A stretch of DNA of 63,894 nt, the filler included, from Collodictyon triciliatum (Eukaryota), in the NCBI GenBank assembly GCA_043381765.1. It is 3 parts of 3 records of this genome, joined end to end, with 100 filler letters (N's around TTAATTAATTAA, not from the genome) between each part and the next. Parts side by side here need not be neighbours in the genome. Positions count along the whole stretch, not along the records: positions 21,370 to 42,602 come from JBHJMP010001195.1; 2 more parts are not named here. One strand, given 5' to 3'. Shown here in pieces: positions 21,270 through 45,842 of this stretch; position 1 is the stretch's first letter; every line of letters starts with the position of its first letter. The position numbers and the translations under genes are program-made. The notes below the pieces were generated by a model, which saw only the letters and a program-made list of their open reading frames with translations, did no database searches and was not told the DNA's origin.

Positions 21270-21369
21270 NNNNNNNNNNNNNNNNNNNNNNNNNNNNNNN
21301 NNNNNNNNNNNNNTTAATTAATTAANNNNNNNNNNNNNNNNNNNNNNNNNNNNNNNNNNNNNNNNNNNN
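21270..21369. other. Artificial contig linker N44-TTAATTAATTAA-N44
   Basis: Exactly 100 nt, with stops in all six frames; repeated identically at 42603-42702. Confidence 0.95.
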
Positions 21370-21851: not shown

Positions 21852-23980
21852 GATCAATGAGCAGTATGACTCCTCTCCAAAGTTTTGCAGCGCCTTGAAA
21901 AAAGGGTCATTCAATTGCACCTTCATGATGCCCCTCGCTGAAAATCAAACTACGCTTGACTTTACATATGTAATTCCAAAGAAAGGAATGTACTATTTTA
22001 TAATCGAAAATTGTAATGAGCAAGAATTTAAGGTCAAGGTAGATTATTTCTTTCGATAAAAAACAAATTAACCGCATATGTTTTCTCTCGATGCATCCTG
22101 AATATGTCAAAATTTCACCACATTCTACGAAATATAGAGATTATCTTAAGGGGCTCTATTTTTTTATAATTATTATTGTATCAAAAAGATACAAACTATG
22201 CATTTTTTATATTAACTACTAATAACTCTATCAACTCCACTGGTTCATTTTTTAGATGGACTATGTAATGCTAAATCCTGGTGGCGAGCATCTCGGATAC
22301 GGACACATACCGCTTCCTTCCACTCTCCAAGCTCTTTTGATCATATGGTTGATAGTCTCTATTCTTTGGGTCGCAAACTGGCTATTCCACATACGGGTAA
22401 GAAACTAACTGCACCTGGACTCACTGCTCCTTCGAGCAAATCGCTTTCTTCATTAACATATTTCCATAATGTTTGGGTCAGCAGATGAACTAAATTAATT
22501 AACAATTACTGCATTTGCTGTTTCTGTTCCGGGTAGCATCCCGTAAAACTACACTTTTTGATATCGACAGTCCCATTTTCAAAGATAGTTTGCTTTTATG
22601 AATCGTACATCTACTGGTCATATCTATCCGAGTATGGTACGATTTTTTCCAAAAAAAAGAGAAAGAATTAAGANNNNNNNNNNNNNNNNNNNNNNNNNNN
22701 NNNNNNNNNNNNNNNNNNNNNNNNNNNNNNNNNNNNNNNNNNNNNNNNNNNNNNNNNNNNNNNNNNNNNNNNNNNNNNNNNNNNNNNNNNNNNNNNNNNN
22801 NNNNNNNNNNNNNNNNNNNNNNNNNNNNNNNNNNNNNNNNNNNNNNNNNNNNNNNNNNNNNNNNNNNNNNNNNNNNNNNNNNNNNNNNNNNNNNNNNNNN
22901 NNNNNNNNNNNNNNNNNNNNNNNNNNNNNNNNNNNNNNNNNNNNNNNNNNNNNNNNNNNNNNNNNNNNNNNNNNNNNNNNNNNNNNNNNNNNNNNNNNNN
23001 NNNNNNNNNNNNNNNNNNNNNNNNNNNNNNNNNNNNNNNNNNNNNNNNNNNNNNNNNNNNNNNNNNNNNNNNNNNNNNNNNNNNNNNNNNNNNNNNNNNN
23101 NNNNNNNNNNNNNNNNNNNNNNNNNNNNNNNNNNNNNNNNNNNNNNNNNNNNNNNNNNNNNNNNNNNNNNNNNNNNNNNNNNNNNNNNNNNNNNNNNNNN
23201 NNNNNNNNNNNNNNNNNNNNNNNNNNNNNNNNNNNNNNNNNNNNNNNNNNNNNNNNNNNNNNNNNNNNNNNNNNNNNNNNNNNNNNNNNNNNNNNNNNNN
23301 NNNNNNNNNNNNNNNNNNNNNNNNNNNNNNNNNNNNNNNNNNNNNNNNNNNNNNNNNNNNNNNNNNNNNNNNNNNNNNNNNNNNNNNNNNNNNNNNNNNN
23401 NNNNNNNNNNNNNNNNNNNNNNNNNNNNNNNNNNNNNNNNNNNNNNNNNNNNNNNNNNNNNNNNNNNNNNNNNNNNNNNNNNNNNNNNNNNNNNNNNNNN
23501 NNNAAAAAAAGCTATTTCCTCATTATACACATATTAAATTAGAGAGAACAGGAGTATCTGCGCAGCTATAACTACGAAGGACCCTCCGATTCACTGCGAA
23601 GAAAAATAAATGTGATGAGGTACATTCATAATAATATTACCCGGTTCAACTCTCGTAAACATCGAGCAAGTTTGACATCATAATATTTCATCCAAGAATC
23701 GGTGTCGGAGCGAACCTGGTTTAACTTATTAACGCTGTAGATCATTTCAAACTGGTGTAATGCTTTACATCTTTGTCGATATCATGGTAATTTTATCCAT
23801 TCACATAACAATGGACCTCAGTTGTATATCTCTCCTGCATCATTCTGTCAATGCATAATTGTGGTATCTGTTCTAATATACAGGTGAACATAATTTCTGT
23901 GTTTTTCCTCTATAAATACTACTGGATTCAAGTGTTGGTTGAGGAAATTTCGCTTTTGCTTCTTTTCCTTCGAATAGCGT
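21852..23980 (+). CDS. GPR107/GPR108/TMEM87 (lung 7-TM/GOST) family protein, partial, interrupted by gaps
   Basis: Exons ...FTYVIPKKGMYYFIIENC... and MDYVMLNPGGEHLGYGHIPLPSTLQALLIIWLIVSILWVANW, then later LRRKINVM and YKYYWIQVLVEEISLLLLF. Ends are uncertain. Confidence 0.65.
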
Positions 23981-25526
23981 ACGTTTCTAATCAGCAAATG
24001 AAATCGACGGAAAAACTAATTATAATTTACTCTCTTCTTTATTTCCTTACCCGTTCTCTCTGAAAAGAATACCGATTATGCACATGTGTAATCTCGTGCA
24101 TACGGCACATCGCTTTATTGGTGCGCGCAATCTCACATTTTTTTCTCCTTCTTTTCCTAACACATTTGCGCAATAAGTATCCATTTCCGCCTGCAAAACT
24201 TCAGCGAATACCAAAACCAAAATATTCCAAACATTCTCGCCAATCTGTCAGGAGACTTGCCGGTAACGCTTTATCCAGCTCTCTTGAAACCTTATGTCAT
24301 TCACACTGTTGTTTATTTTTCATCAATATCGCTTCTGGATTATGGCCGGTTATTTTCTCCGATAATCGAAGATTTTATTCCANNNNNNNNNNNNNNNNNN
24401 NNNNNNNNNNNNNNNNNNNNNNNNNNNNNNNNNNNNNNNNNNNNNNNNNNNNNNNNNNNNNNNNNNNNNNNNNNNNNNNNNNNNNNNNNNNNNNNNNNNN
24501 NNNNNNNNNNNNNNNNNNNNNNNNNNNNNNNNNNNNNNNNNNNNNNNNNNNNNNNNNNNNNNNNNNNNNNNNNNNNNNNNNNNNNNNNNNNNNNNNNNNN
24601 NNNNNNNNNNNNNNNNNNNNNNNNNNNNNNNNNNNNNNNNNNNNNNNNNNNNNNNNNNNNNNNNNNNNNNNNNNNNNNNNNNNNNNNNNNNNNNNNNNNN
24701 NNNNNNNNNNNNNNNNNNNNNNNNNNNNNNNNNNNNNNNNNNNNNNNNNNNNNNNNNNNNNNNNNNNNNNNNNNNNNNNNNNNNNNNNNNNNNNNNNNNN
24801 NNNNNNNNNNNNNNNNNNNNNNNNNNNNNNNNNNNNNNNNNNNNNNNNNNNNNNNNNNNNNNNNNNNNNNNNNNNNNNNNNNNNNNNNNNNNNNNNNNNN
24901 NNNNNNNNNNNNNNNNNNNNNNNNNNNNNNNNNNNNNNNNNNNNNNNNNNACTCCGACAGACACATTTGTAACCACTTTTTTCTTTTCTTCTCTACTTAT
25001 GTTCCTTTCTATGAAAGAATTCGACGCATCTCACCCTCTTTAGATAACGTTATATCCTCTCTCTCTCCATTTGAGAAAGCTGACCCAATCTATTCGTATA
25101 CATCGATGAATCCAACCTTCATTCTTGCAATTATTATTTTTCGTTTTCGGAACACAATATGAGTTGACGAAAACGAAAACGAAAGAGAAAAAAAAATTAC
25201 AAGGATATGGGAATTCTCACCTCAACTTCATCCAACATATCAAATTACCCTTCCTTCCGCTTTTTGCTTAACACCAACAGATAAATAAATAAAGTCAGTA
25301 TGGCTACACCTGGGGAAAATAGGAAGCACAAAGTATTCTATGCGAAAGCAGCACTCAAGACGACGATGAGTGTCCGAACGCAAAGCTTGTAGATTCCTTT
25401 CTCCTTTATTCCAAGCAAAACAACTCCCGCCTTTATCCCAGCAAACAGAGGGACTCGCACATCCAGGTCTCGTCAGAAGAAAAGAAAGAAGGAAGAAAGA
25501 AAGAGAAAAAAAAATATGAGTGGATT

Positions 25527-27905
25527 CTACTGGCCGAGCGCCGCCTTCAAAGAACCATCGGCCGCCATCTCCTCGACAATGTCCACGCCGCCAATGAGCT
25601 CGCCCTCGTGGTAGAGCTGAGGATACGTGGGCCAGTTGCTGTATTCCTTGAGTCCTTGCCTCACGTCCTCGTCCAGCAGAATGTCAAATGTCCCAAACAC
25701 AACCCCGCTTGCGTGGAGAATATCCACAATCTTGCGGGAGAACTTGCACTGCGGCCGCTCAGCAGAGCCCTTCATAAAGAGCATCGTTGGCTGCGACGTG
25801 ACAAGCGCTCTCAGTCGCGCCTCCAGCTGTGCTTTTGCGTGGGCTGTCGTGGCCTCTGCAGGAATCAGGCCGAGAAGCTCGCCGGTCTCGTGGAGTTCCT
25901 TGGTGATGTCCACGCCCCCGACCAGTTCGCCCTTCACATAGAGCTGCGGGTATGTGGGCCAGTTGCTGAATGTGCGCAGCCCTTCTCGCACTTGGTTGTC
26001 AGAGAGGATGTCAAAGAATCCAAACTTGATGCCGTTCTTGTCCAGGAGGTCTACAATCTGTCGGCTGAATCCGCATCTGTAGTTGTGAGGCACAATGAGA
26101 ATCGCTGATAATAATAAAAAAAAAGAAAAGAAAAGAAAAGAAAAGAAAAAAAAGACAGTATGGATAAAATAATCAAAATGTATATAAGAGGAAGAGAACC
26201 AGAAACGTAATATCACACCAGCAAAATCTAATTGATACGGTTGGAAATAGCATCATAGTAACAAACTTTGGTGCCTGCGGCTCTCCCTTCATAAACAGCA
26301 TCACAGGCTCTCTGTTGACCAATTGTTCCAGGCGGGCATTCAAGGCTTTCAAAGCCGCCTCTGGGTCTGTGGGTGCAGAAGGATGGGAAGAAGACGGTTC
26401 TGTGGCTGGAATGGGCTCGGTATTGAACTTGGTCACTTTTTGGGCTAGTTGTGCAGGATTGACGCCTTCCACTTTGTCAAGCACACGGCCTCTCTGTAGT
26501 TTTGTGGATACAAACAAACAAAAACAAAGCATACCGCCGTGAATATGGCTATAATGTGGTGAAAAAAAAGTCATAGAAGTATATCAGAATAAAAAATCAG
26601 AATAAGAAAATCAGAATAAAAACAGAATATAAAAACAGAATATAAAAACAGAATATAAAAACAGAATATAAAAACAGAATATAAAAACAGAATATAAAAA
26701 CAGAATATAAAACAGAATATAAAAACAGAATATAAAAACAGAATATAAAAACAGAATATAAAAAAAGAATATAAAAAANNNNNNNNNNNNNNNNNNNNNN
26801 NNNNNNNNNNNNNNNNNNNNNNNNNNNNNNNNNNNNNNNNNNNNNNNNNNNNNNNNNNNNNNNNNNNNNNNNNNNNNNNNNNNNNNNNNNNNNNNNNNNN
26901 NNNNNNNNNNNNNNNNNNNNNNNNNNNNNNNNNNNNNNNNNNNNNNNNNNNNNNNNNNNNNNNNNNNNNNNNNNNNNNNNNNNNNNNNNNNNNNNNNNNN
27001 NNNNNNNNNNNNNNNNNNNNNNNNNNNNNNNNNNNNNNNNNNNNNNNNNNNNNNNNNNNNNNNNNNNNNNNNNNNNNNNNNNNNNAAAAGAATAAAAAAA
27101 GAATAAAAAAGAATAAAAAAATCAGAATAAAAAAATCAGAATAAAAAAATCAGAATAAAAAAATCAGAATAAAAAAATCAGAATAAAAAAAATCAGAAAA
27201 AAAATCAGAATAAAAAAAATCAGAATAAAAAAATCAGAATAAAAAAATCAGAATAAAAAAAATCAGAATAAAAAAAATCAGAATAAAAAAATCAGAATAA
27301 AAAAAATCAGAATAAAAAAAATCAGAATAAAAAAACTGATATTATATTTATCTATATAGTTAGATAAATATAATATCAAAAACAGAATATAACAATTTTA
27401 AAAACATAATAAAAGATAAAATGTAAGTTAATTAAACGTGAGAATAGAAAAAACAGAGAAGATAAGACATCCACCATCTCGCGCAAACTGAAAAGAATAA
27501 ATACAAAGAATTAAAATCATAAAAACTATGAAAAATGAAAAAAAAAACCATATTACCAAGAGGAAGAGAACAGTAGGTACAGACTCGACGCCATACTTAT
27601 CCGTGGCTTCCGAGACCGATTCGCTGTTAACCTAGACAGTTAGACACCCAAAGGCAAGGTTAGATAGTAAAGATCGACCCAAAAGCAGGGCCCAAAGCAA
27701 CCAGGAGTGAGAAACATGGAATGGTAAGTCTGACCTGAGCAAAGACCAGGTTCTGATTGGACGGAAGCAGAGCAGTCAGCAGTTGCGAGACCGAGCGGCA
27801 GGGAGAAGCCCAGTCGGCTGCAAAGAGCGCAACAACAATATTTGGTCTCGTGATGAGCGCTGCAAACTCTGCGGCGCTGTTGACGACTTCGAGGGCCTGA
27901 CTCAT
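25527..27905 (-). CDS. GLRX3: Multidomain monothiol glutaredoxin (thioredoxin-like + 2 Grx domains; GRX3/PICOT type)
   Basis: FAADWASPC Trx domain, [24 protein letters not shown]...[10 protein letters not shown], and a second Grx domain [16 protein letters not shown]...[10 protein letters not shown]. Confidence 0.93.
26583..27335. repeat. Intronic minisatellites (AAAAACAGAATAT)n and (AAAAAATCAGAAT)n spanning a gap
   Basis: Direct reading; inside a glutaredoxin intron. Confidence 0.9.
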
Positions 27906-31600: not shown

Positions 31601-32926
31601 CATTCCTCCTGGCTTCATCAAGGGCGACATTGGAGGTACGTGAAAATAAAACTGTCATCGCCCAAAGTGTATTTCAAAGCCTGAAAGTGTTTTTGATTAA
31701 TGATAAGCTGAACAAGAACCCAACATCAGAATTAACCAAAGTATAATAAAAGGAAATCAACTTGCATGTCACGTTTCCGTCCCTCTTTCGTACTCCGTCC
31801 CAGAACACAAGCAAAAAGGAAAAAGAAAAAAAAGGATGGTAAACACCGTCACAATACTAACAGACCGAGCTGTCATGCATAGAAAGACAATGTCGACCCT
31901 TTTAAACACAACCTCATGGAAATATGGAAGAATCAGCACTCAAGCAAAAAGTTACTTTCACAGGAGCTCCCCCTAAAAAGTGGACTGGTCCTTGGAAACG
32001 CGCCTCACCCAAAAAAAATCTTGACAAACAATCCCATGTGCAGTATTATGAAGTCAGTATTATTTCTATTTTTCATTCAAAATGTTGTTTCTATTTCATT
32101 CGAAGAGTATTGTTATACAATAAAAATTCCTAATGAAACATTTTTCATGATTTGTCTGTTAATGCAAGGCACATTTGGAAAAAACGCTTACGTTGAATGG
32201 AAGACAAGCATATAAACCTTGAAAAATCCATGCGCTGGTGGTTTGGTATATTTATATTCAAATCTGACGCAAAAATCTTCACGATGCAAACCTCACACGA
32301 TGATTAATGGAGAGTATTACATTAGTATCGGTATTAAGATTTTATTTTGTTTGTAAATTTGGCATTCTGTGGGAATATACTAACCATGACATATAATTTG
32401 AGACGTTTGCACAATTTAGAATATTTTTAAAGGATAATAAAAAATTGACCGGAATAATATCCCGAATCATCGTGCAGAGATTTGCAGACATCACATATCT
32501 TATATTTACTAAATATTTAGCATTCACAAAATATTTTATGTTTAGTGACTGTATGATACATAAGCAACCCACATCAATAGTGTTTACAGATCAAAGAAGC
32601 AGTTAAAAAAGATACATGAAATCCATCAAATGTATTGAGATATTTGCAGTCCCTTATAATTTATTTCATAATAAAGAAAAATAAAATATAATAAGAATTG
32701 ACGATATAATGAACTTTGAGCGTTAATACAATAAAACCTTGTCAGCCCATGAAACAATCTAAAACGCTTTCAAAATAAGAATCATAATTAATCAAACAAT
32801 ATCCATTCAAGAAAAAGGAGAAATAGGTTGTTATATATTAGAGTTGATTGATTATTGGCATATATTATAAGCGATGAATACGATGTTTTTATGCAACACA
32901 CACGAAGGAATAGGAATATTCGAAAC

Positions 32927-35900
32927 ATGTCTGCAACCGAAGCAAGCACCGAGGCCAACATCAGTCTTGTCACCATTGACGAAGTCTGTACAAATACATA
33001 CATTTTGATCAATAATTATTATATATATTAGAGAGGATAGATTACTTACGCCAACTACTGAGCATAGGCTGTCCTCGAATGGGTGAACCACCACCTGGGA
33101 AAAATCGAGCTCAAGGCGAAGAACATCCGCGATGACTTTACGGACGGGTTCTATTTGGCCATATTGATTGCGGCGGTTACCGGAAAGTCCTTGGGAAGCT
33201 ACCATTCCCGCTTGTTTGCGTATACTTTATTTATGATATTTAGACATTAATTCTGTAATTTTCATGGATTTGTATTTCATCCCTGTATTTATATCAGTGA
33301 CAAAGCTATTGAGGAGGAGGTTCTTGTTGACGAGAATCAAAAACTCATCATTGATTGGTTTGTGAGATTTAATGTGTGTGATGAGGCTGTTGCTTCTCAG
33401 TCCCATTTCGCTGGTTTGCTTTATTTGTTTTCAAGGGAAATAATATTGGAATTTTTCATATGTCACAATTTTATTTTGTATGAGTAATTGACATGTAAAT
33501 ATTCTTACAGATTTGGTCAATACAATTCTCCAGTATCTTATTGGACAAAGCGTTGGCCATCTGGGAAATATCGGCGTAAAAATTCTTACTTTTTTCTTCA
33601 TTTTTCACGATTTTTGAACTATGTCGAAATATAATTTCTGGTCGTTAAAAATTATAGAAAAAATGTCGTGAGAGGTACAATATTGCCAAGAGGCTCTACG
33701 AAAGAGCAAATGCCCCGTTTCCGTTCCATGGTTGAAATTCGATGTATCTTAATTTTTTTTTATGTTTTTTTATTTATTGTATTTTTTTATATGTTAACTA
33801 TATTAAATTTAAAATTTTATGCAGGTCTTGGTCTGGAAGAAAAAGGCTCTGTCGTGTTCATCCGCACTTGCATTCTTCTTGACAAGGTAGTAATAATTAA
33901 TTAAAAACATATAATGAACATTTAATAAATACATTTCGTTTTGTCGAGTATAATCGCATATGCAAACCAGATGAAGCTCGCTTGTGAAGACATGAAGGAG
34001 AGGCAATACAAGAAGTGGAATCCAGCTCCACAAAGATACATGAGCTCGATACCACTTCCCGAAATTATCTTTGAAGAGCGTGTCATCCGTGTTTTCCTTT
34101 CCTCCACTTTACGTGACATACAGCAAGAAAGAGACGAGTTTTTCAAGAACGGAGCCCCTGAGTAAGTATACTACATTTTTATAGTGAATAAATCTATGAT
34201 AAGGAATGATAATTTGATGTCACCATTCGCTTTCATAACAATATAATATTAATGACAGGTTGAAAAGACTTGCGAAATCGAAGGGACTGGACCTTGTCTT
34301 TATCGATTTGCGCTGGGGACTGACTTCTGTGGACAGTAGTGAGGGATGGGTAGTGGCTTCATTATAACATGTCATCATATTTTCAATAATTGAAATGATG
34401 TGTTGCATTTTATAAAATGGATACCTTAATTCATTCCTTTTTTCTTCATATTTATTGTAGGTTGTCATTCGCTGTCTGGACTCCATTGGAAAATGCCCAT
34501 ACTTTGTGTGCTCTCTCGGTGCGCGCTACGGCTGGATTCCTGACCAGAACAAAACGGAGCTGAATAAACAAGCCCGCCTTGAGGAGCTGCTGAAAACCAA
34601 GCCTGATGCCACCATGAAGGATATCTCTGTGGAATGGCGCAGTGAAACGAATAGCCGCTTCCCATTCATTGATGGAATGCCTGGGTTGAGTGTGACTGAA
34701 TACGAGGTGAAGTGAATCTCTACATTATATTCGGTATCGTCTCACGAATAATAACAATAGAGTAATTAAACAAATCATTCTCTAAATCATTATTCATGCT
34801 CAGATTCAGTACGCCTGTCTGATTGACAAACCAGCATGCAGCCGAGCTTTCTTTTACCTCCGCGATGAGCAGTATGCTGTCCAAAATGCCAAGAGCGAGG
34901 AAGAAAGAAAGCTATTCCAAGCTGAAAGCGAAGAGGCGGTAAAAATTGATAGAAAGTCTTTAATTTTCTTTTTTATGTTATTATGTTACTTTTATTTAAT
35001 TATTTGATTTTTTTGACATATATTATAATGTATTTTTTTTTTAGCGTAAGAGGCAGGACGAGCTCAAAGGGAAAGTCAAGGCCAAGTTCGGGCATGTTGT
35101 CTACAAAGGAGGGAAGGAGTATTCGGACTTTGTGACCTACCATCTCTCCTATGCCATCGAGCGAGACTTTGGGAAGCAAACCGTATTTTTTATTTTTAAT
35201 GGATTGAGATTTAAATATTGATTGGTGGTATATATTTCATTTCATTTATATTTTGTTATCATGACTATAATATAGGTGAGAGACCCTGAAGACCAAGCGC
35301 AGCACCAGTTCAAGATGCATCGACTGGCTGGGTTTGGCGGAAGAAAGGAGCTTCTCAAGACAATCATGGAGCAAGTAAGATAAAGATCAATTAATTAAAA
35401 ATGACATCGCTGTCTTTTTATTTTCTCTTTTCAATTCTCTTATTCTTTATTTATCAGGCCATGAGCCAGCTGAACATAGACAAGTCCAAAATCATCGTTC
35501 TTGCTGCCGAGTCTGGTATTGGAAAGTCGTCGCTCATGGCTGCTACAGTGAGAGACCTCGAAGGGCTGAAGCATCCTGGGCTGCATGTCTTTTTCCATTT
35601 TATCGGATGCACCGACCTCAGCAGTTACGTTGAAAGGTAATTTTTATTTGTAATTTTTAATGGGTTTTATGATGGTTTTGGTTGTTTTGTATATTCAAGC
35701 CTTTTTTTATTTAGCATTTCGATTCGCTTCTGGACTCTGGTCACAAACTCTGCCAACTTTGTCGAGAAAAAGAAGCAAGAAGCTGGTATTACAGTATTTT
35801 ATTTTATTTTTCAATTCAATTCAATTCAAATTTCGTGTAATTATTCATCTATTTTTTTATTTTGCCACCAGAATACGAAAAAGAGGGACTCCAGGGCTTG

Positions 35901-38900
35901 CTGAAAATGGTTCAGGAGAAAAATAAGTAATAATTATGCCAATTTTGTCTATTTTAATTATAAAATCAAAATTAAAATAATTTGAATCGAATTAAAAATT
36001 TGATATTAAATTATATATTGTAGGGACGAGATGTTTGTCTTCCTCATCGATGCCATCAACCAAATCCACCCATCGCAAGGAACGCCAGCTCCGCATCTGC
36101 TGACCTGGTTGCCCAAAGAAACGCCACCTAATGTTGCGATGGTTGTGTCGACCATTCATACCCATGAATCTTGCACGGTATTCATCATTTATTTAAGTTT
36201 TGGATATGTTTATTTTCTGCATAAAATTGATTTGAGTGGATCTTTATTAAATGTACCTGTCATAAGTCTGCCAAGCAAAGTGGACTGGAGCCGATTTCTG
36301 TCGCCAAGTTGACCGAGGGCGAAATTAAGGACGGTGTCGAATCATTCCTCATCCGCTATGACAAGACCCTGAACGAAAAGCAAGTTGGAATGATTCTGGC
36401 TGACTTTGAATATACTGGTGAGACATTTGTTAAAAGAGTGTATATTTTGATTCCTTTTTTAGTTGTATGATTTAGTTATTCATTATCTGATATTTCTATA
36501 GGCCATCCACTTTATCTCCGCATCATTCTGGATGAGGTCAGGATCTTTGGCGTCTATGAGAAGATTGATGAAGAACTGTTTGTGCTGCTTTCTACGGATG
36601 GTGTCATTGAGCTTTACACTCTCATTATCAAGCGCTGGCAACTGAAGTTTGACAGGAAAGGTGAGTATTGGTTTCATATTTCACAAAAAAAAAAAAGCAA
36701 TATAATTGAAACTTTTATTGATCGATACTTTTTCAGTGGCCTCATCTGATGGAAAAGAGACAATGAAGGTCGAGTATGTCTCTCTCTCGATGAAGGTTCT
36801 GTTTGTCTCTCGTATTGGTTTGAGTGAAGGTGACTTGGACAAGTACATGAAAGATGCGATTGGCACAGGATTCGAGCTTGCTGAGTGGTTTGCTTACTCT
36901 TGAATATTAATAGAATTAAAAGGTTTGCCCTTTTCTTTTCTTTTTTATTTGACTTATCTTTTATCCATTCAAATAGGAAATCCTTCTTCTTTACCCTTAT
37001 CGAGTCGCTTTTCGTCCGCAATGGAAGGTTAGTGTCAATATTCAGTCTTTTTGATTCATTAATATGTTTTTCTGTTATAATTCTATGTTGGATAAAAGCC
37101 TTAATTACTTATATCAAAGATGCATGTACTTCCACCAGCTGCTGCTGGAGACCTCCCAAAAGGTCTACTTCTCCGAAGAGAAAGAGGTGGAAAAAACGCA
37201 CGAAAAATACGGAAAATGGCTGTTTGGACAGTATTCTGAGGCTGCTGACGCGGATGAGGAGCTTGCTGCTGAGATTTGCTACCAACTTCTGAAGGGCAGT
37301 TTGTTTGACTTGCTTGTCGAATACATGAAGCAAAAACATGTAATTTTTTATTTTTTATTTTTCGATTATTCTTAGTTATAATGAAACGGCATTCACTGAT
37401 TAATTTTAATACTTTATAGGTTATCAGTATCATGCTCGGCGGTCGCTATCGCTACGAGTTCTTTACATGCTGGAGAGCAATCAACGCAAGTGGAGCAGCA
37501 AACTACAAAGATGTTTATGGAAGCTTGGCTAAGGTAATTTATAATTTTTTTAAAAATTTTTGAAGGTTACTACTCACAAATTTAATTATCAATCATGATA
37601 TATCTATTAATTTTTTTTTGTTTTTTTCAGTCTTTGGATAAAGTGGGAGACCTGCTGGTTGGATTTTTCTTGGAGTCTTTTGAGAACTCGTTTTTGTTGT
37701 CTGTACTGAATGTGCGTCTTGGAAAGCATCAGACAGAAGGTATACAATTTGTTATCTTTTTTGATGAATTTATGCAATGAAGATGAGTTGATGTGTGGAC
37801 ATATTGAATAATCTGCGAATTTACAGATGCAAAGGCTGCTGATTACCTGAATCTTGGTCGTGTCTACAAGAATCTCCAAAAGTAAAGAAAAAAGAACAAA
37901 TAAAATTTTGATTATCGATTAATACAAGATTATAAAATATAATGAAAACTTTTCTAAAATAAAAATTAAAAAGCTGGGCGGAGTCCATGGTCTACTACAA
38001 GAAATGCCTCGATGCAGTTGAGAAAAATGAAGATGATTCCCTGGGTATCGCTACCATTCACGAAGAGATGGGAATTATCTACCAACATCAGGATAAGTAA
38101 GTCTCGCTCGCCACTTAAAATATTAAATATAGTTAATGTTACAAAAAAAGGTGTTCTGATATATTATTTACACAGAATTGATGAAGCCCTCCACGAATAC
38201 AAGAAATCCCTGGACTTTAGAATAAAAAAACTGGGCGAAAACGACTTGCAAGTGGCCCAATCGTACGACCGCTTCGGAGACATATATGTGAAACAGTCAA
38301 AGTAACATTTGAATAATTTATATTCGCTGATTTTCTGCTTTTATATTGTAAATTAATTTATGCTGATCAATTTTTTATGATAGGAATGAGCAAGCTCTGG
38401 CTGAATACACAAAGGCCATGAAAATCCGCCAAAAGAAAGTCGGAAACGAGCATCCTCTTGTCGCAACATCGCACCAGAACTATGGTCATGTCTCTCTGGC
38501 TGGGAAAAAGTAGCTTAGTTATTCGATTTAACCTGATTTTAAATATTATCATCATTTTTGAGAAATATTAATATGATTGAATCACAAAGGTATGAAGAGT
38601 CTATTGACAACTACGAAAAAGCGAAAGCAATCCTTGAAAAATCATTGGGAGCCAAGCATGCATCTGTTGCCTCGACAATCCAGTTTATTGCGAACGTTCA
38701 TCTTGCCAGTGGAAAGTTGAAATTTCTAAATTTTAGATATTTGCATACATAATTTTCCTTTCTTTTAATTTTTGCAAAAAGAGTGTGGCTTTATATCTTT
38801 CATTTGTATGGACTCTATTTAGGGTTATATTTTTGATAATAAAATTTAAAGTATTTAATAACCAAAACCATCGTATTATATAGGAAAACTGAGGCCTTAT

Positions 38901-41900
38901 CCTCACTAAAGCAATCACTGGATATTTTCATAATTGCCCTGGGTGAAAATCATCCGAATGTTGTGGCCTGCTATGAAATGATTGGAGACATCAGCCATGA
39001 TTTGAAGGAGTATGTCTTTAACAATTATTTTTAAATTTTTAATTGAAAACAGCGTATTTACTCGCTCATATTATCCTAGCTTTAAGGGTGCTTTGCAGGC
39101 CTATGTAAAGACGCTGGATATTCGCATGAGAACGCTGGGCGAAAAGCATGCTGATTATGCGACTTCCCTTGAAAATGTTGGCAGAACAAACTTTAGCCTC
39201 AAGAGGTTTATTTCTGTATTATTTGTTAAAATCGAATATTTTGATTTCATACTTGTAAAAAAGAAAATCAATAATGTAATAATATAATTGCATTTAGAAT
39301 GGACCAAGTTGTTGAATACTTCCAGAAGGCAGCTGCTATAAGAAAGGAGACAAAGACAATCATGTCACTGAAAGACGGCCATCAGATTGAAAAGATTATC
39401 CGATTTATGAAGGACAAGAAGGAACACGAAACAGTCATTCAGCTGTACAAAACAGCTGCTGTTAGACACGGTGAGAAGTCCTCCTTTGAAAACTGGGACT
39501 GCTGGGTGGCTTGTGAGAATGCGCATCAACACTGCAAAGAGAACAAGCTGTATGAAAGTGGCGTCGAATTTTGGGCTGAGATGAGAGATATATTTGCTGA
39601 TAAAGTTGGATGGATTCACCCCACAACATTAAACTCATGCGAATACTTGTCCGTCTATTCAAAAGAAATCGGAATCAACAAAGAGCTTGTCGAGTTAACA
39701 AGAGTCAAGAAATTCATCAGCGAAACTCTTGATGATGCAAAGTTGGATGGAGAATGGAATCGTAAGCAAATCATTGCATCGTTATTCAGAATTGTCTACA
39801 TGTCAAAGACTGATGAAAGCAAATCAAAGGCTGCGTCTGATGCCATGACACTTTTGAATTTCATGAACGTTTCGTTTGGTGGAATGGATTTATCAAACAT
39901 CAAAATTCCAAATGCAAATCTCAGTAACTCAATCCTTGATGGCGCAAATTTAACTGATGCCAACTTGAGTGGTGTTGATTTCACGAATTCGATGCTTGGT
40001 GATTGTGTTTTTGATCACGCGAATATGAATAATTTGAAATTTGGAATTTCTCATGATAAATTAGAAGGGCATACTGAGACTGTCTATAGTATTTGCAATA
40101 TTCAAGGACCGAATGGTGAAAATTGGTTGGCTTCCGGAGGTAATGATAGAACATTACGTATTTGGGATGTAGCCACAGGAAGCCAAATCAAAAGATTAAA
40201 TGGACATACAAATGCTGTCAGCTGTATTTGCAGTATTCAAGGATCGAATGGTGAAAATTGGCTGGCTTCAGGAAGTGAGGATAAAACAATACGTATTTGG
40301 GATGTAGCCACAGGGAGCCAAATCAAAACATTAGAGGGTCACACAGAAGGTGTCACTAGTGTTTGTAGTATTCAAGGACCAAATGGTGAAAAGTGGCTGG
40401 CTTCTGGGAGTCGTGATAATATAATACGTATTTGGGATGTAGCCACAGGAAGCCAAATCAAAACATTAAAAGGACATACAGGCTATGTCATAAGTGTCTG
40501 CAGTATTCAAGGACCGAATGGTGAAAAGTGGCTGGCTTCTGGAAGTGGTGATAGCACAATACGTATTTGGGATGTAGCCACAGGAAAAAAAATTAAAACA
40601 TTAAAAGGACATGAGAATGATATTAATAGTGTTTGCAGTGTTCAAGGACCAAATGGTGAGAAATGGTTGGCTTCTGGAAGTGGTGATAAAACAATACGTA
40701 TTTGGGATGCATCCACAGGAAAACAAATAAAAACATTAAACGGGTATGCAAATTGGGTCTTGAGTGTTTGCAGTATTCAAGGATCGAATGGTGAAAAGTG
40801 GTTGGCTTCTGGAAGTGGTGATGATACAATACGTATTTGGGATATAGCCACAGGAAACCAAATCAAAACATTAGAAGGACATACAAATACTGTCAATAGT
40901 ATTTGCAGTATTCAAGGACCGAATGGTGAAAGGTGGTTGGCTTATGGGAGTGATGATGAACCAATACGTATTTGGGATATAGCCACAGGAAACCAAATCA
41001 AAAAATTAGAAGGTCATGAAAATGATGCTAACACTGTTTGCATTATTCAAGGACCGAATGGTGAAAAGTGGCTGGCCTCTGGAAGCTATGACAAAACAAT
41101 ACGTATTTGGGATATAGTCACAGGAAACCAAATCAAAATATTAAAAGGTCATACAAGTGTTGTCTATAGTGTTTGCAGTATCCAAGGACCGAATGGTGAA
41201 AAGTGGCTGGCCTCTGGAAGCTATGACAAAACAATACGTATTTGGGATATAGCCACAGGAAACCAAATCAAAACATTAGAAGGTCATGCAAGTGTTGTCT
41301 ATAGTGTTTGCAGTATTCAAGGACTGAATGGTGGAAGTTGGTTGGCTTCTGGAAGTATGGATTATACAATTCGTATTTGGGATGTAGTTACAGGAAACCA
41401 AATCAAAAAATTAGAAGGTCATGCAGAAGGTATCTATAGTATTTGCAGAGTTCAAGGACCGAATGGTGAAAATTGGTTTGCCTCTGGAAGTGAAGATAAA
41501 ACAATACGTATTTGGGATGCAGCCACAGGAAACCAAATCAAAAAATTAAAAGGTCATAAAGACGCTGTCTATAGTGTTTGCGCTATTCAAGGACCGAATG
41601 GTGAAAAGTGGTTGGCCTCTGGAAGTGAAGATAAAACAATACGTATTTGGGATGTAGCCACAGGAAACCAAATCAAAACATTAGAAGGTCATATAAGGGA
41701 AGTTGACAGTGTTTGCAGTATTCAAGGACCAAATGGTGAAATGTGGCTGGCTTCTGTAAGTGATGATGATACAATACGTATTTGGGATGTAGCCACAGGA
41801 AACCAAACACACAGTCTGCAAAAATCAGAAGTGACTTACACGCAAGGAAAATACCTAGTCATGAAAGAAAAGCCAGACGAGGTCATTGCAGTATTCAATA

Positions 41901-42602
41901 GAACCAGTGACGCGATGAACACGATTGACACCAACAGAATCCTAGATGCAAAGACAGTCCAGATTATCGGCCCAAGAAAGCTGCGAGGTGGAAACATCCA
42001 AATCAGAAACGTCATGGGATTGAGTCGATCCAACAAATTCCTCCTACATTCCATCGGTGCTGTTTCCTATGATGCGGACTTTGTTGCCTATTGTGAGCAG
42101 GGTAAGTTCACAAAGTTCCAGGCTCAAATGATGGCTGAGTGTTATGACAATGGATGGGGTGTTGAGAAAGATGCTGAAAAGGCTTTTTATTGGAGATATA
42201 TTGCCTTTCCAAAGTTATCATTAGATTTTGATGGATTGAAGCAACTAGCACAACAAGGCTCAAACGAGGGATTCAATGTTTTGAAAGACATGGCTGAAAT
42301 AAAGAATAGATGGGAAGAATACAAATATCCACAAGCTGTTTCTATTGTTGCTGAATGCTATGAGAATGGATGGGGTGTTGAGAAGGACTCTTCGTTGTCT
42401 CTTAAATGGGAAATATTCAGTGGAAAGGCTGAAAACTTTGAGAAACTGAAGCAATTTGCGCAACAAGGCTCAATGGGTGCATTCAACGTTTTGAAAGAAA
42501 TGGCTGAAATGAAGGAAGATATCCTGGACCGATGGGGAAACAAAGATGGTGAAAAACACAAATATATACATGCTGTATCAATCGTTGCCGAGTGCTACGA
42601 AA
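32927..42602 (+). CDS. NLR-like STAND NTPase: calponin-homology - DUF4062 - NACHT/AAA_16 - TPR array - pentapeptide - 13xWD40 - Sel1-like; 3' end truncated by contig end
   Basis: CH: VLEWVNHHL...NIRDDFTDGFYLAILI. DUF4062: IRVFLSSTLRDIQQERD...IDLRWG...CPYFVCSLGARYGWIP. Walker A: AESGIGKSSLMA. Walker B: FVFLIDAINQI. KLC-type TPRs (LGEKHADYATSLENVG), pentapeptides (ANLSNSILDGANLTDANLSG), WD40 at 40067-41821, and AECYENGWGVEKD repeats. The exon junctions I checked join in frame. Confidence 0.9.
40067..41821 (+). repeat. 13 tandem 135-bp coding repeats (45-aa WD40 units)
   Basis: Consensus GHxxxVxSVCSIQGPNGEKWLASGSxDxTIRIWDVATGNQIKTLE; nucleotide blocks such as acaatacgtatttgggat recur at 135-nt period. 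Confidence 0.95.
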
Positions 42603-42702
42603 NNNNNNNNNNNNNNNNNNNNNNNNNNNNNNNNNNNNNNNNNNNNTTAATTAATTAANNNNNNNNNNNNNNNNNNNNNNNNNNNNNNNNNNNNNNNNNN
42701 NN
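42603..42702. other. Artificial contig linker N44-TTAATTAATTAA-N44
   Basis: Same as 21270-21369. Confidence 0.95.
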
Positions 42703-43572: not shown

Positions 43573-43892
43573 TTATTGAGATGGCCACATCTTAGTGTTC
43601 CCGGAAGAAGCCGGCCTTTGAGGGATATTCAATATCCGTTCCTGTCAAAATTGCTGCTGCCTTGCGCTCTTTCTTTCTCGCTACCTTATCGCTTCACTCA
43701 TTCGCAACGCGCATTCTGTTGTATATGTGCACAACCGCATCGCTCTCACTAAATCAACACTCGTCCTGAGTGACTTGTCGAGTGCATTCACAAAACCAAT
43801 AAACACTATACAACACACTAACACACAACCCAGTCCACTCGCCCACACAGAATCCCAGAACCCCCAGAACCCGTCCAATCGCCTCTGTCACG

Positions 43893-45842
43893 ATGGCCGA
43901 CAAGACTGCGCTTTTAGAAGAGCTCCGAAAAATCGCCGGGAAATCCAACATCGCCTATTTAAAAAGCTCCAAGAGTTTACAACTCTTCCAAAGAAGTCTC
44001 AAATCTGTTCCTTGTGGAGTTTTCTTTCTGGAAAGTTTGAGAGGATTGGATCTTCACAGCAATCAACTGTCGTTGCTACCCCCAGAAATATCGTGTTTGA
44101 CCTGTCTCTTGAAACTTTTGGTTTTTGGCAACCAGTTGTCATCTCTGCCTCCACAAATATCATGTTTGACCGGACTCAGTGTTCTTTGTGTTAATCACAA
44201 CCAGCTGTCGTTTCTGCCTCCACAAATATCGTGTTTGACTGGTCTCACATATATTGGTGTTAATGCCAACCCGGTATGGTTTTTTTTTTTCATTTGTTAA
44301 TATATTTTTACTTCGTGCTTAAAGAGAATCTTACTAACAAAGATACATGCAGATGGAGGAGCTTCCACTGCAAATCACAGCGCTCACAAATCTGAAAGTG
44401 CTCTACATAAGAGGTTGGGGTACACAGACCATAAGGAGGGCGCCGCGTGGCATCACAACTCTTCCAGTGTGGAACAACACAGAGAACGAGAATTATAATC
44501 ACATCCGCGCTCTGCAGCTCTACGGCCATGTCAGCACACACATCCCCACAACCCCCAGATACTCACATATAGAACACAACTGACAGAACTCCAGGTTAAG
44601 GCCGCAGCTGAAGTTCGTAAGGCTGAACCGTCGAGTAAGCAAAAAGACCAATCTCCCAAACAGCATTCCCTGCAACCTTCTTTGACTCGAATAACGGAAG
44701 AAATAAACATTCTCTCCTTCCTTACAATAGGATATATCTCACAATAAACCACTACAGCAGCGACCAGCCGCCTGGCCCATGGCAAGTATGCCGACCTGTT
44801 GACCACGGACTTTGAGACGCAGGGGAACTTCCTGGGCAAGGGTGGCTTCGGGGTAGCATTCAGGGTGCAGTTGAAGGAGGGTGTCTTTGCTGTGAAGAAG
44901 ATCGGTGACACCATGGTCTCATTGTCTCCGGGCAGTGCAGACCCCGAGAAGGAGGGCAACATGATGCTCGAGCTGCAACACCCGAACATCCTGACGCTCT
45001 ACGACTTTGGATTCCGCGGTAGAGACCTGCTCTTTGTCATGGAGTTCGCAGACGGCGGAGACTTGTGTGCACTAAGCAAAAAGCAAAAAGCACTAGGAAA
45101 CGACCGTACCCTCAAGTATGGGCTGGATATCATCCAGGGCCCTGTCTACCTGCACACGCGGCCAAGGCCCATCCAGCATCGCGACCTTAAGTCCGAGAAT
45201 GTCCTCCTTGTGAACGGGATCGCCAAGCTAACCGACTTCGGCCTTGCAAAGAGCGGGGTCTCTGTCAACTCGGTGAGCAAGTTTGCCGGCTCGACGAACT
45301 GGTCGCCGCCCGAGGTCTTTGACGAAGGCAAAAGCATGGGGCTGCCCAGCGACGCCTACTCGTACGGCGTGGTCCTCTGGTCCATGCTGAGCGGCGAGTA
45401 TCCGCACGAGGGCATGGCAAACGGCAAAGTTGGAGCCTCTGTGACTAGCGGTAAACTGCTTCCCCTCCCTGCAACCTGTCTTTCTAACCTCGCAGCTCTT
45501 ATCCACAAGTGCTGGGAAAAGGACTATGGGACTCGCATCACTGCCCAATAGGTTGAGGCTGAACTCAAAGACATCGCCGCTAATCCCGGTCCTGTCTCGG
45601 CGGTTACTCCAAGGGCTGGCCCTGTAAACACCATCAGAAACATGAACAACTCCGAGCTACTGTCCTATTTGGCCAGTAAGAATGCTAGTGAAGTTGTGAT
45701 TGAGTCATTTAGAAAGGTCAGAACCACTGGTGCGGAGATTGTTCTACTGAAGAAGGAAGATCTCTTGGGAGAACCCTTTCAGCTCCCAGCATTCCAGGCA
45801 CGCTTTGTCTTAAAGCTGATTGAGGAGGCCAGCCGCACTTAA
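43893..45842 (+). pseudogene. LRR - TKL-type protein kinase - SAM-like gene with an in-frame TAG at 45549-45551
   Basis: 23-aa LRRs (LxxLxxxxNQLSxLPPQISCLT); three in-frame GT-AG introns; kinase motifs LGKGGFG, AVKK, HRDLKSEN, DFG and WSPPE; RITAQ*VEAELK continues in frame into a SAM-like tail (FRKVRTTGAEIVLLKKEDL). Confidence 0.8.

Follow-up and report, generated by a model that had tools for sequence, protein, structure and literature searches.

The DNA analysed here, referred to as the window, is a stretch of 63,894 nucleotides from the genome assembly of the protist Collodictyon triciliatum (GCA_043381765.1). Between positions 32927 and 42602 its plus strand carries one gene, whose product is a single chain that begins with a calponin-homology (CH) domain and continues through a TIR-like DUF4062 domain, a NACHT-type STAND NTPase, tetratricopeptide repeats (TPRs), a helical linker, a pentapeptide-repeat beta-helix and a WD40 array to Sel1 repeats (Table 1). 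The gene model was derived with a dynamic program (codon log-odds, GT..AG introns, phase tracking), and three introns were adjusted by hand from read joints and homology. All 30 introns of the model are GT..AG introns of 70–168 nt. The plus strand offers many short open segments from 32000 to 39300 and then an open frame of 1127 codons (39275–42658). An earlier reading of this DNA (the original prediction) had proposed one spliced frame of the same architecture with the same start and end, and our model agrees with it at both ends. It had also counted three repeat types; these repeats are present, but the count becomes four if Sel1 is included, and a helical linker has to be added.

Table 1. 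Features of the gene and of the adjoining contig end. Positions count along the window; aa, residues of the gene model.
Feature	Position	Strand	Details and basis
Gene model	32927..42602	+	31 exons, 30 introns, 2318 aa, no stop
Exon 1, proposed start codon (19 codons)	32927..32983	+	GT donor 32984, in-frame join to 33068
CH domain, aa 20-124, exons 2-4	33068..33557	+	sub-threshold exon match and homologues
Conserved region between CH and DUF4062, aa 125-213, exons 4-7	33558..34081	+	collinear with P0131 and P0005
DUF4062 / TIR-like (TeTIR) domain, aa 214-439, exons 7-11	34082..35170	+	exon Pfam fragments and homologues
Glu352 codon, equivalent of TEP1 E1008, second E of SVTEYE motif	34704..34706	+	alignment
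NACHT-type STAND NTPase core, aa 463-699	35333..36560	+	P-loop exon match and homologues
Walker A (GIGKS)	35515-35529	+	motif
Walker B (FLIDA)	36040-36054	+	motif
GHPLYL motif, split by intron	36417-36518	+	motif
Helical and winged-helix-like region, aa 700-948, exons 18-24	36561..37828	+	collinear with four D. rotans ORFs
TPR array of KLC/NPHP3 type, ~6.5 units of 42 aa	37829..39349	+	TPR_12 exon matches
Helical linker, apparently degenerate TPR-like hairpins	39350..39880	+	AlphaFold2 model
Short pentapeptide-repeat beta-helix	39881..40045	+	Pfam Pentapeptide 59.7 bits (cut-off 20.2)
13 tandem WD40 units of exactly 45 aa (135 nt), no intron	40034..41788	+	Pfam WD40 390.5 bits, 13 stretches
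Region between WD40 array and Sel1	41789..42115	+	aligns with P0131, P0007, P0011, P0230
Sel1 repeats, two by Pfam, a third starting just before the sequence end	42116..42602	+	40.2 bits (cut-off 30.7)
Artificial join of two contigs	42603..42702	.	44 N, TTAATTAATTAA, 44 N

Chance would not be expected to leave a frame open across as many as 30 introns. In addition, spliced contigs of two public runs (X1 and X2) contain 74 joints; among the 15 listed, 13 fall exactly on introns of the model (introns 2, 3, 7, 9, 10, 11, 12, 14, 15, 21, 22, 23 and 24). One further joint among those listed fits intron 4 approximately, and the letters between the joints give approximate support for intron 17 and for the junction of exon 30, which ends at 39205, with exon 31, which starts at 39298; here an X2 contig joins 39194 to 39305. 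This junction, on which the original prediction had relied, corresponds to intron 39206–39297 of the model. The intron sits inside a TPR unit with the frame continuing across it. The RNA nature of X1 and X2 is only guessed, their share is small (0.07 of words), and their contigs are short and 90–99% like the window.

A third line of evidence comes from homologues in Diphylleia rotans, which are transcript open reading frames (ORFs) from EukProt. One of them, P0131 (2619 aa), aligns with model residues 18–2067 as a single segment (49.1% identity, 2145 columns), and the alignment continues to residue 2182. Because P0131 is collinear throughout, the whole chain exists as one ORF in a relative. 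Other D. rotans ORFs cover parts of it: P0005 spans residues 21–1007 at 51.9% identity, P0007 residues 603–2184 and P0011 residues 747–1829. The 39205/39298 junction is covered by three D. rotans ORFs, all of which continue across it and share the motif NVGRTNF.L.R..QV.EY. Multiple alignment with the D. rotans ORFs also validated the small and doubtful exons 14 and 20, and left exon 19 with two candidate acceptors, 36737 and 36758.

These data bear on the suspicion that the chain is an artefact, either a chimera, made by the model or the assembly, of a CH-DUF4062-NACHT-TPR gene and a pentapeptide-WD40-Sel1 gene, or a WD40 array collapsed or inflated by the assembly. There are grounds for such a suspicion: the model was built with a simple dynamic program and hints, the chain is not spanned by any read of this organism, the window consists of joined contigs with internal N gaps, and a further D. 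rotans ORF (P0230) has the pentapeptide-WD40-Sel1 part within another NACHT protein. We nevertheless consider an artefact highly improbable in view of the frame that stays open through the split TPR unit, the three read-through ORFs with their common motif, the X2 contig at the same junction and the entire chain carried by P0131; nor does the window contain a stop, a gap or a long intergenic stretch between the two halves.

Some observations on the transcripts do weigh against the single chain. The X1 and X2 contigs may derive from paralogues or close relatives, and they demonstrate splicing rather than a full-length transcript; no transcript of this very gene covers the whole chain in these contigs. 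One joint, from 36881 to 37202, occurs in contigs of both runs and fits no model intron. It skips 320 nt with the ends TG..AC and would delete exon 20 together with parts of exons 19 and 21; no GT-AG intron corresponds to it. This joint may reflect a divergent paralogue that was aligned piecewise, or an alternative form. The C-terminus of the protein is also missing, as detailed below.

Neither end of the gene is fully secured. ATG 32927 is not proven to be the true start: an in-frame stop lies upstream at 32849–32851, and 32891 offers an alternative in-frame ATG. Two D. rotans homologues, P0131 and P0005, extend 186–270 residues further towards the N-terminus than the model, and a tblastn search of the window with both sequences found no counterpart of these residues. 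At the other end, position 42602 is the last base before a run of N. The construct that follows recurs identically at 21270–21369; its central element, TTAATTAATTAA, presents a stop in all six frames. We read both constructs as artificial joins and the window as a concatenation of at least three contigs. Gene order across 21270–21369 and 42603–42702 is therefore meaningless. Because the contig ends within the gene, the 3' end, the stop codon and the tail of the Sel1 region are absent. Behind its Sel1-like repeat, P0007 has additional C-terminal domains (residues ~1620–1849), with MIB_HERC2 (PF06701) in its precomputed Pfam list, so more than Sel1 repeats might be encoded in the part of the window gene that is absent here.

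Pfam scans were made on single exons or ORF pieces and on homologues from the databases. Exon 2 alone scores 20.6 bits with CH (PF00307; cut-off 26) and 19.6 bits with CH_2, both below threshold. The assignments of CH, DUF4062 and NACHT, for which the exons of the window score below threshold, rest on the collinear homologues. The CH score rises to 34.1 bits in P0005 and to 42.9 bits in the first 1123 residues of P0131, and the alignment between model and homologue is ungapped over the N-terminal half of the domain. In a PDB search, P0005 matched CH1 of plectin and alpha-actinin at E 1e-5 to 1e-4; with CH1 of MACF1 included, the range is E 1e-5 to 1e-3. The classical actin-binding module of the spectrin/alpha-actinin type is a tandem pair of CH domains. 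No second CH domain, and hence no CH1-CH2 pair, was found among the Pfam matches of P0005 or P0131. The first 188 residues of P0131 were considered as a second CH domain and dropped: their PDB matches are at chance level (E 0.69 and 1.8), and no PDB relative of this extension was found at E<=0.1. The conserved region that follows the CH domain gave no Pfam match within the scanned ORF pieces.

The DUF4062 domain follows the same pattern. Exons 7 and 9 score 17.2 and 24.3 bits (cut-off 24.7), compared with 42.9 bits in P0005 and 42.5 bits in the first 1123 residues of P0131. A PDB search with exon 9 alone found no match at E<=1; P0005 matches the crystal chain of the TIR-like domain of TEP1 (11gz_A) at E 3.4e-15, and a profile of 22 family members (A1) matches residues 3–219 of this chain at E 2.5e-47. 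A TIR/SIR2-like fold had been anticipated for this domain; its TIR-like part is borne out by 11gz_A, but we saw no evidence for a SIR2-like fold.

Three preprints from 2026 deal with this domain. Osinski et al. (10.64898/2026.05.01.722283) identified DUF4062 as a TIR-like NADase that works both in a bacterial defence system against phages and in human TEP1, where E1008 is catalytic and R908 and R976 contribute to activity; purified NWD1, NWD2 and NPHP3 were inactive as NADases in vitro. Hornebeck et al. (10.64898/2026.09.21.753143) named the domain TeTIR and defined a family in which TeTIR directly precedes NACHT, followed by "either WD40 or TPR". According to the same preprint, F902, R914, R942, C959, R976 and E1008 are required for TEP1 activity, W943 of the RWG loop is a suggested intermolecular interface, NPHP3 lacks the catalytic Glu, and activity is also reported for TEP1 homologues across diverse eukaryotes. 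A third preprint of 2026 (Evangelion) describes further DUF4062 defence proteins.

To place the window protein on this map we used the TEP1 numbering, which is obtained by adding 893 to the 11gz_A chain number (verified on R908, R954 and R976), and the alignment of the model with P0005, which is gap-free over the TIR-like core. As judged from this alignment, the domain keeps every residue that mutagenesis tied to NAD+ hydrolysis in human TEP1. All nine TEP1 activity residues (F902, S905, R908, R914, R942, W943, C959, R976 and E1008) have identical counterparts in the window protein, namely F218, S221, R224, R230, R258, W259, C275, R292 and E352. The catalytic Glu is invariant across the 22 sequences of A1. 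The BB-loop Arg954 of TEP1 is not kept (P0005 has Trp there), and an insertion of ~25 residues precedes the catalytic motif relative to TEP1.

A domain with this set of residues could still act in an NLR-like receptor as a non-catalytic adaptor or oligomerisation module, as TIR domains do in animal Toll/IL-1 signalling. Three of the four purified human DUF4062 proteins were without activity, and the RWG loop with the Trp at the suggested intermolecular interface is conserved in the window protein. We regard this possibility as quite improbable, given that the catalytic Glu, the Cys and three Arg needed by TEP1 are all retained and that active TEP1 homologues are reported from diverse eukaryotes. 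Retention of the catalytic set would be unexpected if only a scaffold role were under selection.

Downstream of the TIR-like domain, the P-loop exon (exon 13) matches NPHP3_N at 19.0 bits and NACHT at 14.5 bits, and also AAA_16 and nSTAND1, all below threshold. P0005 scores 27.4 bits with NACHT and 32.0 bits with nSTAND1, and the first 1123 residues of P0131 reach 25.3 bits with NACHT, just under the cut-off of 26.7. The P-loop and the Walker B motif are intact in the predicted protein. Two exons of the following helical region were scanned, and neither gave a Pfam match. No leucine-rich repeat (LRR) family appeared among the Pfam matches of the scanned gene pieces (for the last exon, among the best 25 of 52 families). 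The protein is thus not an NLR in the strict sense of NACHT or NB-ARC plus LRR, and we use "NLR-like" in the wider STAND sense.

In the TPR array, exons 26–30 measure 126 nt each, share the same entry codon phase and encode one 42-residue TPR unit apiece. Six consecutive exons match TPR_12 at 14.9–27.0 bits, each under the cut-off of 30.1, and the homologues score 126–136 bits with the same family. The NPHP3_N and TPR_NPHP3 models match the window exons weakly and the relatives more strongly. An AlphaFold2 model of 39299–40081 (mean predicted local distance difference test, pLDDT, 86.9) consists of nine helices (~190 residues) followed by a beta-helix with five-residue rungs. With this model, Foldseek found 0 matches at E<=0.001; the best ones were TPR domains of kinesin light chain (E 4e-3, TM-score 0.28). 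These weak matches and the helix pattern hint that the linker may be TPR-like. The equally weak Foldseek matches to pentapeptide proteins include NP275, Rfr23 and MfpA. The last 271 residues were modelled poorly (mean pLDDT 63.5, with the first 68 residues below 50); the model is helical from residue 80, and its Sel1 stretch forms helical hairpins with a pLDDT of ~70–87.

The WD40 array is unusually regular. Its IWD motif recurs with a period of 45 aa in 12 of 12 intervals, and the units share a mean identity of 0.81 at the nucleotide level and 0.70–0.71 at the protein level, with a pairwise maximum of 0.84. In a comparison by unit hidden Markov models, the value of 0.71 stands against 0.44, 0.40, 0.36, 0.34 and 0.30 in five D. 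rotans relatives; an unrelated WD40 gene of the window, which starts at 14736, has a between-unit identity of 0.50. Variation concentrates in columns 14, 15, 16, 18, 22, 30, 37 and 39, each with 5–8 different residues. In these eight columns the proportion of nonsynonymous differences (pN) is 0.49 and that of synonymous differences (pS) 0.34, compared with 0.10 and 0.24 in the other columns. The variable pairs 16/18 and 37/39 flank the conserved columns 17 (Val after GH) and 38 (Asp of SxDxT). The same paired-column pattern was described for the HET-E/NWD repeats of Podospora, where it lies on the interaction face of the propeller (Paoletti et al. 2007, PMC1805685). The WD units look recently homogenised and varied at surface positions. 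Some X2 contigs skip 683 nt within the array (40074–40757, ~five units) or jump back in the Sel1 region (42317–42523), as is expected if relatives or paralogues differ in repeat number.

Relatives were sought in two ways. A first search used the CH-to-helical part of P0005 against 8000 scored candidates of 684–2179 aa and returned 199 proteins at E<=1e-5, the best 120 of which were listed: seven D. rotans ORFs and 113 bacterial or metagenomic proteins. The latter share 23–30% identity with the query and mostly combine DUF4062 (PF13271) with NACHT (PF05729) or AAA_16 (PF13191) and TPRs, some with WD40. Among these best 120 of 199, CH (PF00307) occurs once (P0005) and Pentapeptide (PF00805) is visible in two proteins (P0007 and P0011), some of the Pfam lists being partial. 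The second search, an exhaustive HMMER run with the linker-pentapeptide region against 1.84 billion representatives, gave 10240 matches at E<=1e-3 and six at E<=1e-30. Among the best 150 of these 10240, only P0130, P0131 and P0011, all from D. rotans, cover the whole query including the linker; the short fragments P0132 and P0139 match at 76% and 67% identity, and the remaining matches are confined to the pentapeptide part. Among proteins of 1974–5000 aa the linker-pentapeptide search retrieved only two bacterial pentapeptide proteins; P0131 came to light in the exhaustive run alone. In metagenome contigs, the linker query found no relative, and an exon 9 query found three loci (L001–L003) with 51–59% identity over the DUF4062 core only.

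The close relatives found are all D. rotans ORFs, which form 10 distinct clusters with shuffled modules; this agrees with the protist origin proposed in the original prediction, and the family is not single-copy in the relative. P0006 and P0008–P0010 are DUF4062-NTPase ORFs, three of which continue with TPRs (from precomputed Pfam lists; P0006 was scanned). P0005 and P0131 add the CH domain to this layout, and the TPR-pentapeptide-WD40-Sel1 arm is found in P0007, P0011 and P0131. In P0230, a different NACHT domain (34.6 bits) stands directly before pentapeptide, WD40 and a Sel1-like repeat. A similar combination of junction and pentapeptide module also occurs in several proteins of Hexamita inflata and in a metagenomic NACHT protein, P0201. 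Since the pentapeptide-WD40-Sel1 module also directly follows a different NACHT in the same lineage, the sensor arm of the window gene looks like a fusion, in which a widespread DUF4062-NACHT-TPR protein was joined to a protist pentapeptide-WD40(-Sel1) module. P0131 may be either an orthologue or a paralogue of the window gene.

The core of the predicted protein clearly belongs to the DUF4062/TeTIR-NACHT STAND family of TEP1, NWD1/2, NPHP3 and TTC41, in line with the kinship to TEP1/NWD/NPHP3 that had been pointed out before and with the published family descriptions. DUF4062 precedes NACHT, Walker A and B are present, the catalytic Glu and the NAD-site residues are complete (6 of 6), and both WD40 and TPR follow towards the C-terminus. 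Like TEP1, the protein has the TIR-like domain directly upstream of NACHT and WD40 propellers behind it. Unlike TEP1, it has CH in place of the N-terminal TROVE/VWA part, and TPR, pentapeptide and Sel1 repeats are added. No TROVE/VWA domain was found in the Pfam matches of P0005 or of the first 1123 residues of P0131, and the model starts 19 codons before CH and behind an in-frame stop; the protein does not qualify as a TEP1 orthologue. With NWD1/NWD2 (DUF4062-NACHT-WD40) and NPHP3/TTC41 (DUF4062-NACHT-TPR) it shares the three-part core and the 42-aa TPR of KLC type. It differs from both groups by carrying TPR and WD40 in series, for which the published family description gives an either/or. 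Unlike NPHP3 as described there, it has the catalytic Glu, and WD40, pentapeptide and Sel1 follow the TPRs, so that it is not an NPHP3 orthologue either.

This kinship leads to the main rival explanation, in which the protein is a constitutive ciliary or cytoskeletal scaffold, an NPHP3/NWD1/TEP1 relative stationed at a cilium, the cytoskeleton or a ribonucleoprotein, whose CH, TPR and WD40 parts bind cargo or cytoskeleton and whose TIR-like domain is silent or metabolic. Human members of the family named in the literature have non-immune roles (NPHP3; NWD1 in the purinosome; TEP1 in the vault), and three human members (NWD1, NWD2 and NPHP3) did not act as NADases in vitro. The CH domain resembles CH1 of plectin and alpha-actinin, and the TPRs belong to the kinesin-light-chain type. 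A scaffold would also account for the full architecture being kept between the window gene and P0131. It accords less well with the nine retained TEP1 activity residues, including the Glu that NPHP3 lacks, with the reshuffled N- and C-terminal modules of the 10 D. rotans clusters, with near-identical WD units that vary at surface positions, and with the first 1123 residues of P0131, in which no TROVE/VWA or other TEP1-specific part was found. A scaffold is possible, though we think it rather unlikely.

On balance, we slightly favour the reading that the gene encodes a giant STAND ("NLR-like") switch of the DUF4062/TeTIR-NACHT family, that is, a sensor that turns on a TIR-like NADase. By analogy with Apaf-1, plant TIR-NLRs, SARM1 and the model for TEP1, the long C-terminal repeat arm would hold the NACHT module closed in the resting state. 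Ligand binding to the repeats would permit nucleotide-dependent oligomerisation; recognition of the ligand would most likely fall to the top face of the WD40 propellers, the site at which the variation between the near-identical units concentrates. Oligomerisation would bring the TIR-like domains together and thereby switch on NAD+ cleavage, and the resulting NAD+ depletion or signal could lead to cell death or arrest. The N-terminal CH domain could place the complex at the cytoskeleton or provide a further interaction site. The near-identical WD units and the expanded, reshuffled family in the relative would fit a receptor under diversification, without proving it.

An immune or allorecognition role, and a function of the CH domain as a cytoskeletal tether or an integrated decoy, all part of the original prediction, are inferences. 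Several observations speak against the sensor reading. The receptor role and the NADase function are predictions from sequence, for this protein as for its relatives. The excess of pN over pS is partly circular, as the columns were picked by their variability, and the identity between WD units (0.70–0.71, maximum 0.84) falls short of the "high internal conservation" of fungal NLRs, which was set at >=85% repeat identity over >=100 aa (Dyrka et al. 2014, PMC4986451). A single CH domain does not establish binding to the cytoskeleton. Moreover, an architecture common to the window gene and a D. rotans ORF at 49% identity also fits a conserved cellular role.

A bolder version of the sensor reading, which we hold to be unlikely, would be that collodictyonid-type protists (CRuMs) run their own NLR-style system of immunity or allorecognition on DUF4062 NADase effectors. 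The window gene would then be a cytoskeleton-anchored death switch that combines a TPR arm with a rapidly diversifying pentapeptide-WD40-Sel1 arm of different origin, and whose CH domain serves as a guard or decoy against pathogen factors that target the actin cortex. If true, a "TIR-NLR" would have been put together independently outside plants, in a lineage that branches deep among the eukaryotes.

Comparison with known sensor systems reveals partial likenesses. The bacterial and metagenomic DUF4062-NACHT-TPR/WD40 proteins resemble the CH-to-helical part of P0005 at 25–30% identity over 55–79% of its length. Unlike the window protein, none of the 113 entries from outside EukProt among the best 120 of 199 has a CH domain, and a pentapeptide-WD40 tail behind TPRs was seen only in two D. 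rotans entries of that list, where some Pfam lists are partial. The DUF4062 anti-phage systems Swarozyc and Evangelion use DUF4062 as NADase effector in short proteins without NACHT. Fungal NACHT-WD NLRs (HET-E/HET-D/HET-R, the Podospora NWD family) share with the window protein a NACHT domain followed by similar WD units with paired variable positions. They differ in unit identity (~0.85 vs 0.71 here) and unit length (42 vs 45 aa here) and by a HET effector where the window protein has DUF4062. Dyrka et al. (2014) list WD, ANK and TPR as fungal repeat types, and a term search of their paper gave no mention of two types in one protein; the window protein has several. The Hexamita inflata paralogues, P0230 and P0201 are 40–51% identical over the junction and the pentapeptide module (query residues ~155–259). 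The Hexamita proteins are named in their source as pentapeptide-, WD40- or NB-ARC-domain proteins, and P0230 and P0201 have NACHT directly before the pentapeptide module, without DUF4062, CH or TPR array. Plant TIR-NLRs and SARM1 share a logic with the proposed switch, namely TIR-type NAD+ cleavage controlled by an oligomerising sensor-controlled module (a comparison drawn in 10.64898/2026.09.21.753143). Unlike them, the window protein shows no LRRs in its scanned pieces, has NACHT rather than NB-ARC and carries the divergent DUF4062/TeTIR branch, which makes this a likeness of mechanism and not of membership.

In the literature, with supplementary tables outside the search, we found no paper that describes this architecture, as the original prediction had supposed. 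Nothing was found that joins Diphylleia rotans with NACHT. No description of a CH-NACHT protein turned up, the papers with both terms being proteome or expression lists, and no eukaryotic protein with NACHT, pentapeptide, WD40 and TPR, the texts with these terms being on prokaryotic conflict systems. The family to which the core belongs is already known, and its characterisation is recent. Variations on this theme are the CH extension, the arm with TPR, pentapeptide, WD40 and Sel1 repeats in series, and the homogenised WD units. DUF4062 was recognised as a TIR-like NADase only in 2026, in the vault protein TEP1 and in bacterial anti-phage systems. The window gene and its Diphylleia relatives illustrate how this family was expanded in a little-studied protist lineage, where it kept the full catalytic set, as judged by alignment, and was recombined with CH and a second sensor module. 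If the protein does work as a sensor with NADase activity, it becomes testable whether STAND-controlled TIR-type NAD+ cleavage is an ancient eukaryotic defence logic and not a speciality of plants and animals, and the purpose of a CH domain in a receptor of this kind can be addressed as well. Should it prove to be a constitutive scaffold, the protein would be no more than an elaborate representative of a known family.

Several other features were noted in the window. N gaps occur at 22674–23503, 24383–24950 and 26779–27085. The WD40 gene mentioned above is an intron-free frame of 1810 codons on the plus strand (14736–20168), on another contig than the gene described here. It has many WD40 units (35% identical to the array of that gene over 570 residues), followed by nine Cys-rich Ephrin_rec_like repeats (187 bits) and a long hydrophobic tail that is probably a multi-pass membrane region; it is unusual for a WD40 propeller region to be combined with Cys-rich repeats of extracellular type. 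To the right of the second join, 43803–45551 (+) contains LRR repeats (LRR_8, 38 bits) and then a protein kinase (147 bits); the two lie on different open segments and probably form a single LRR-kinase gene interrupted by an intron. Since it sits on another contig, this gene need not be a neighbour of the CH-to-Sel1 gene. On the minus strand, one open segment (25530–26252) encodes two glutaredoxin domains (118 bits, 2 stretches) and may be a PICOT/Grx3-like monothiol glutaredoxin. Finally, the region 56000–58000 has a GC content of 0.60, compared with 0.35–0.45 elsewhere in the window, and contains long overlapping frames on both strands that are rich in Ala, Arg, Pro and Thr/Asp repeats, one of them ankyrin-like.

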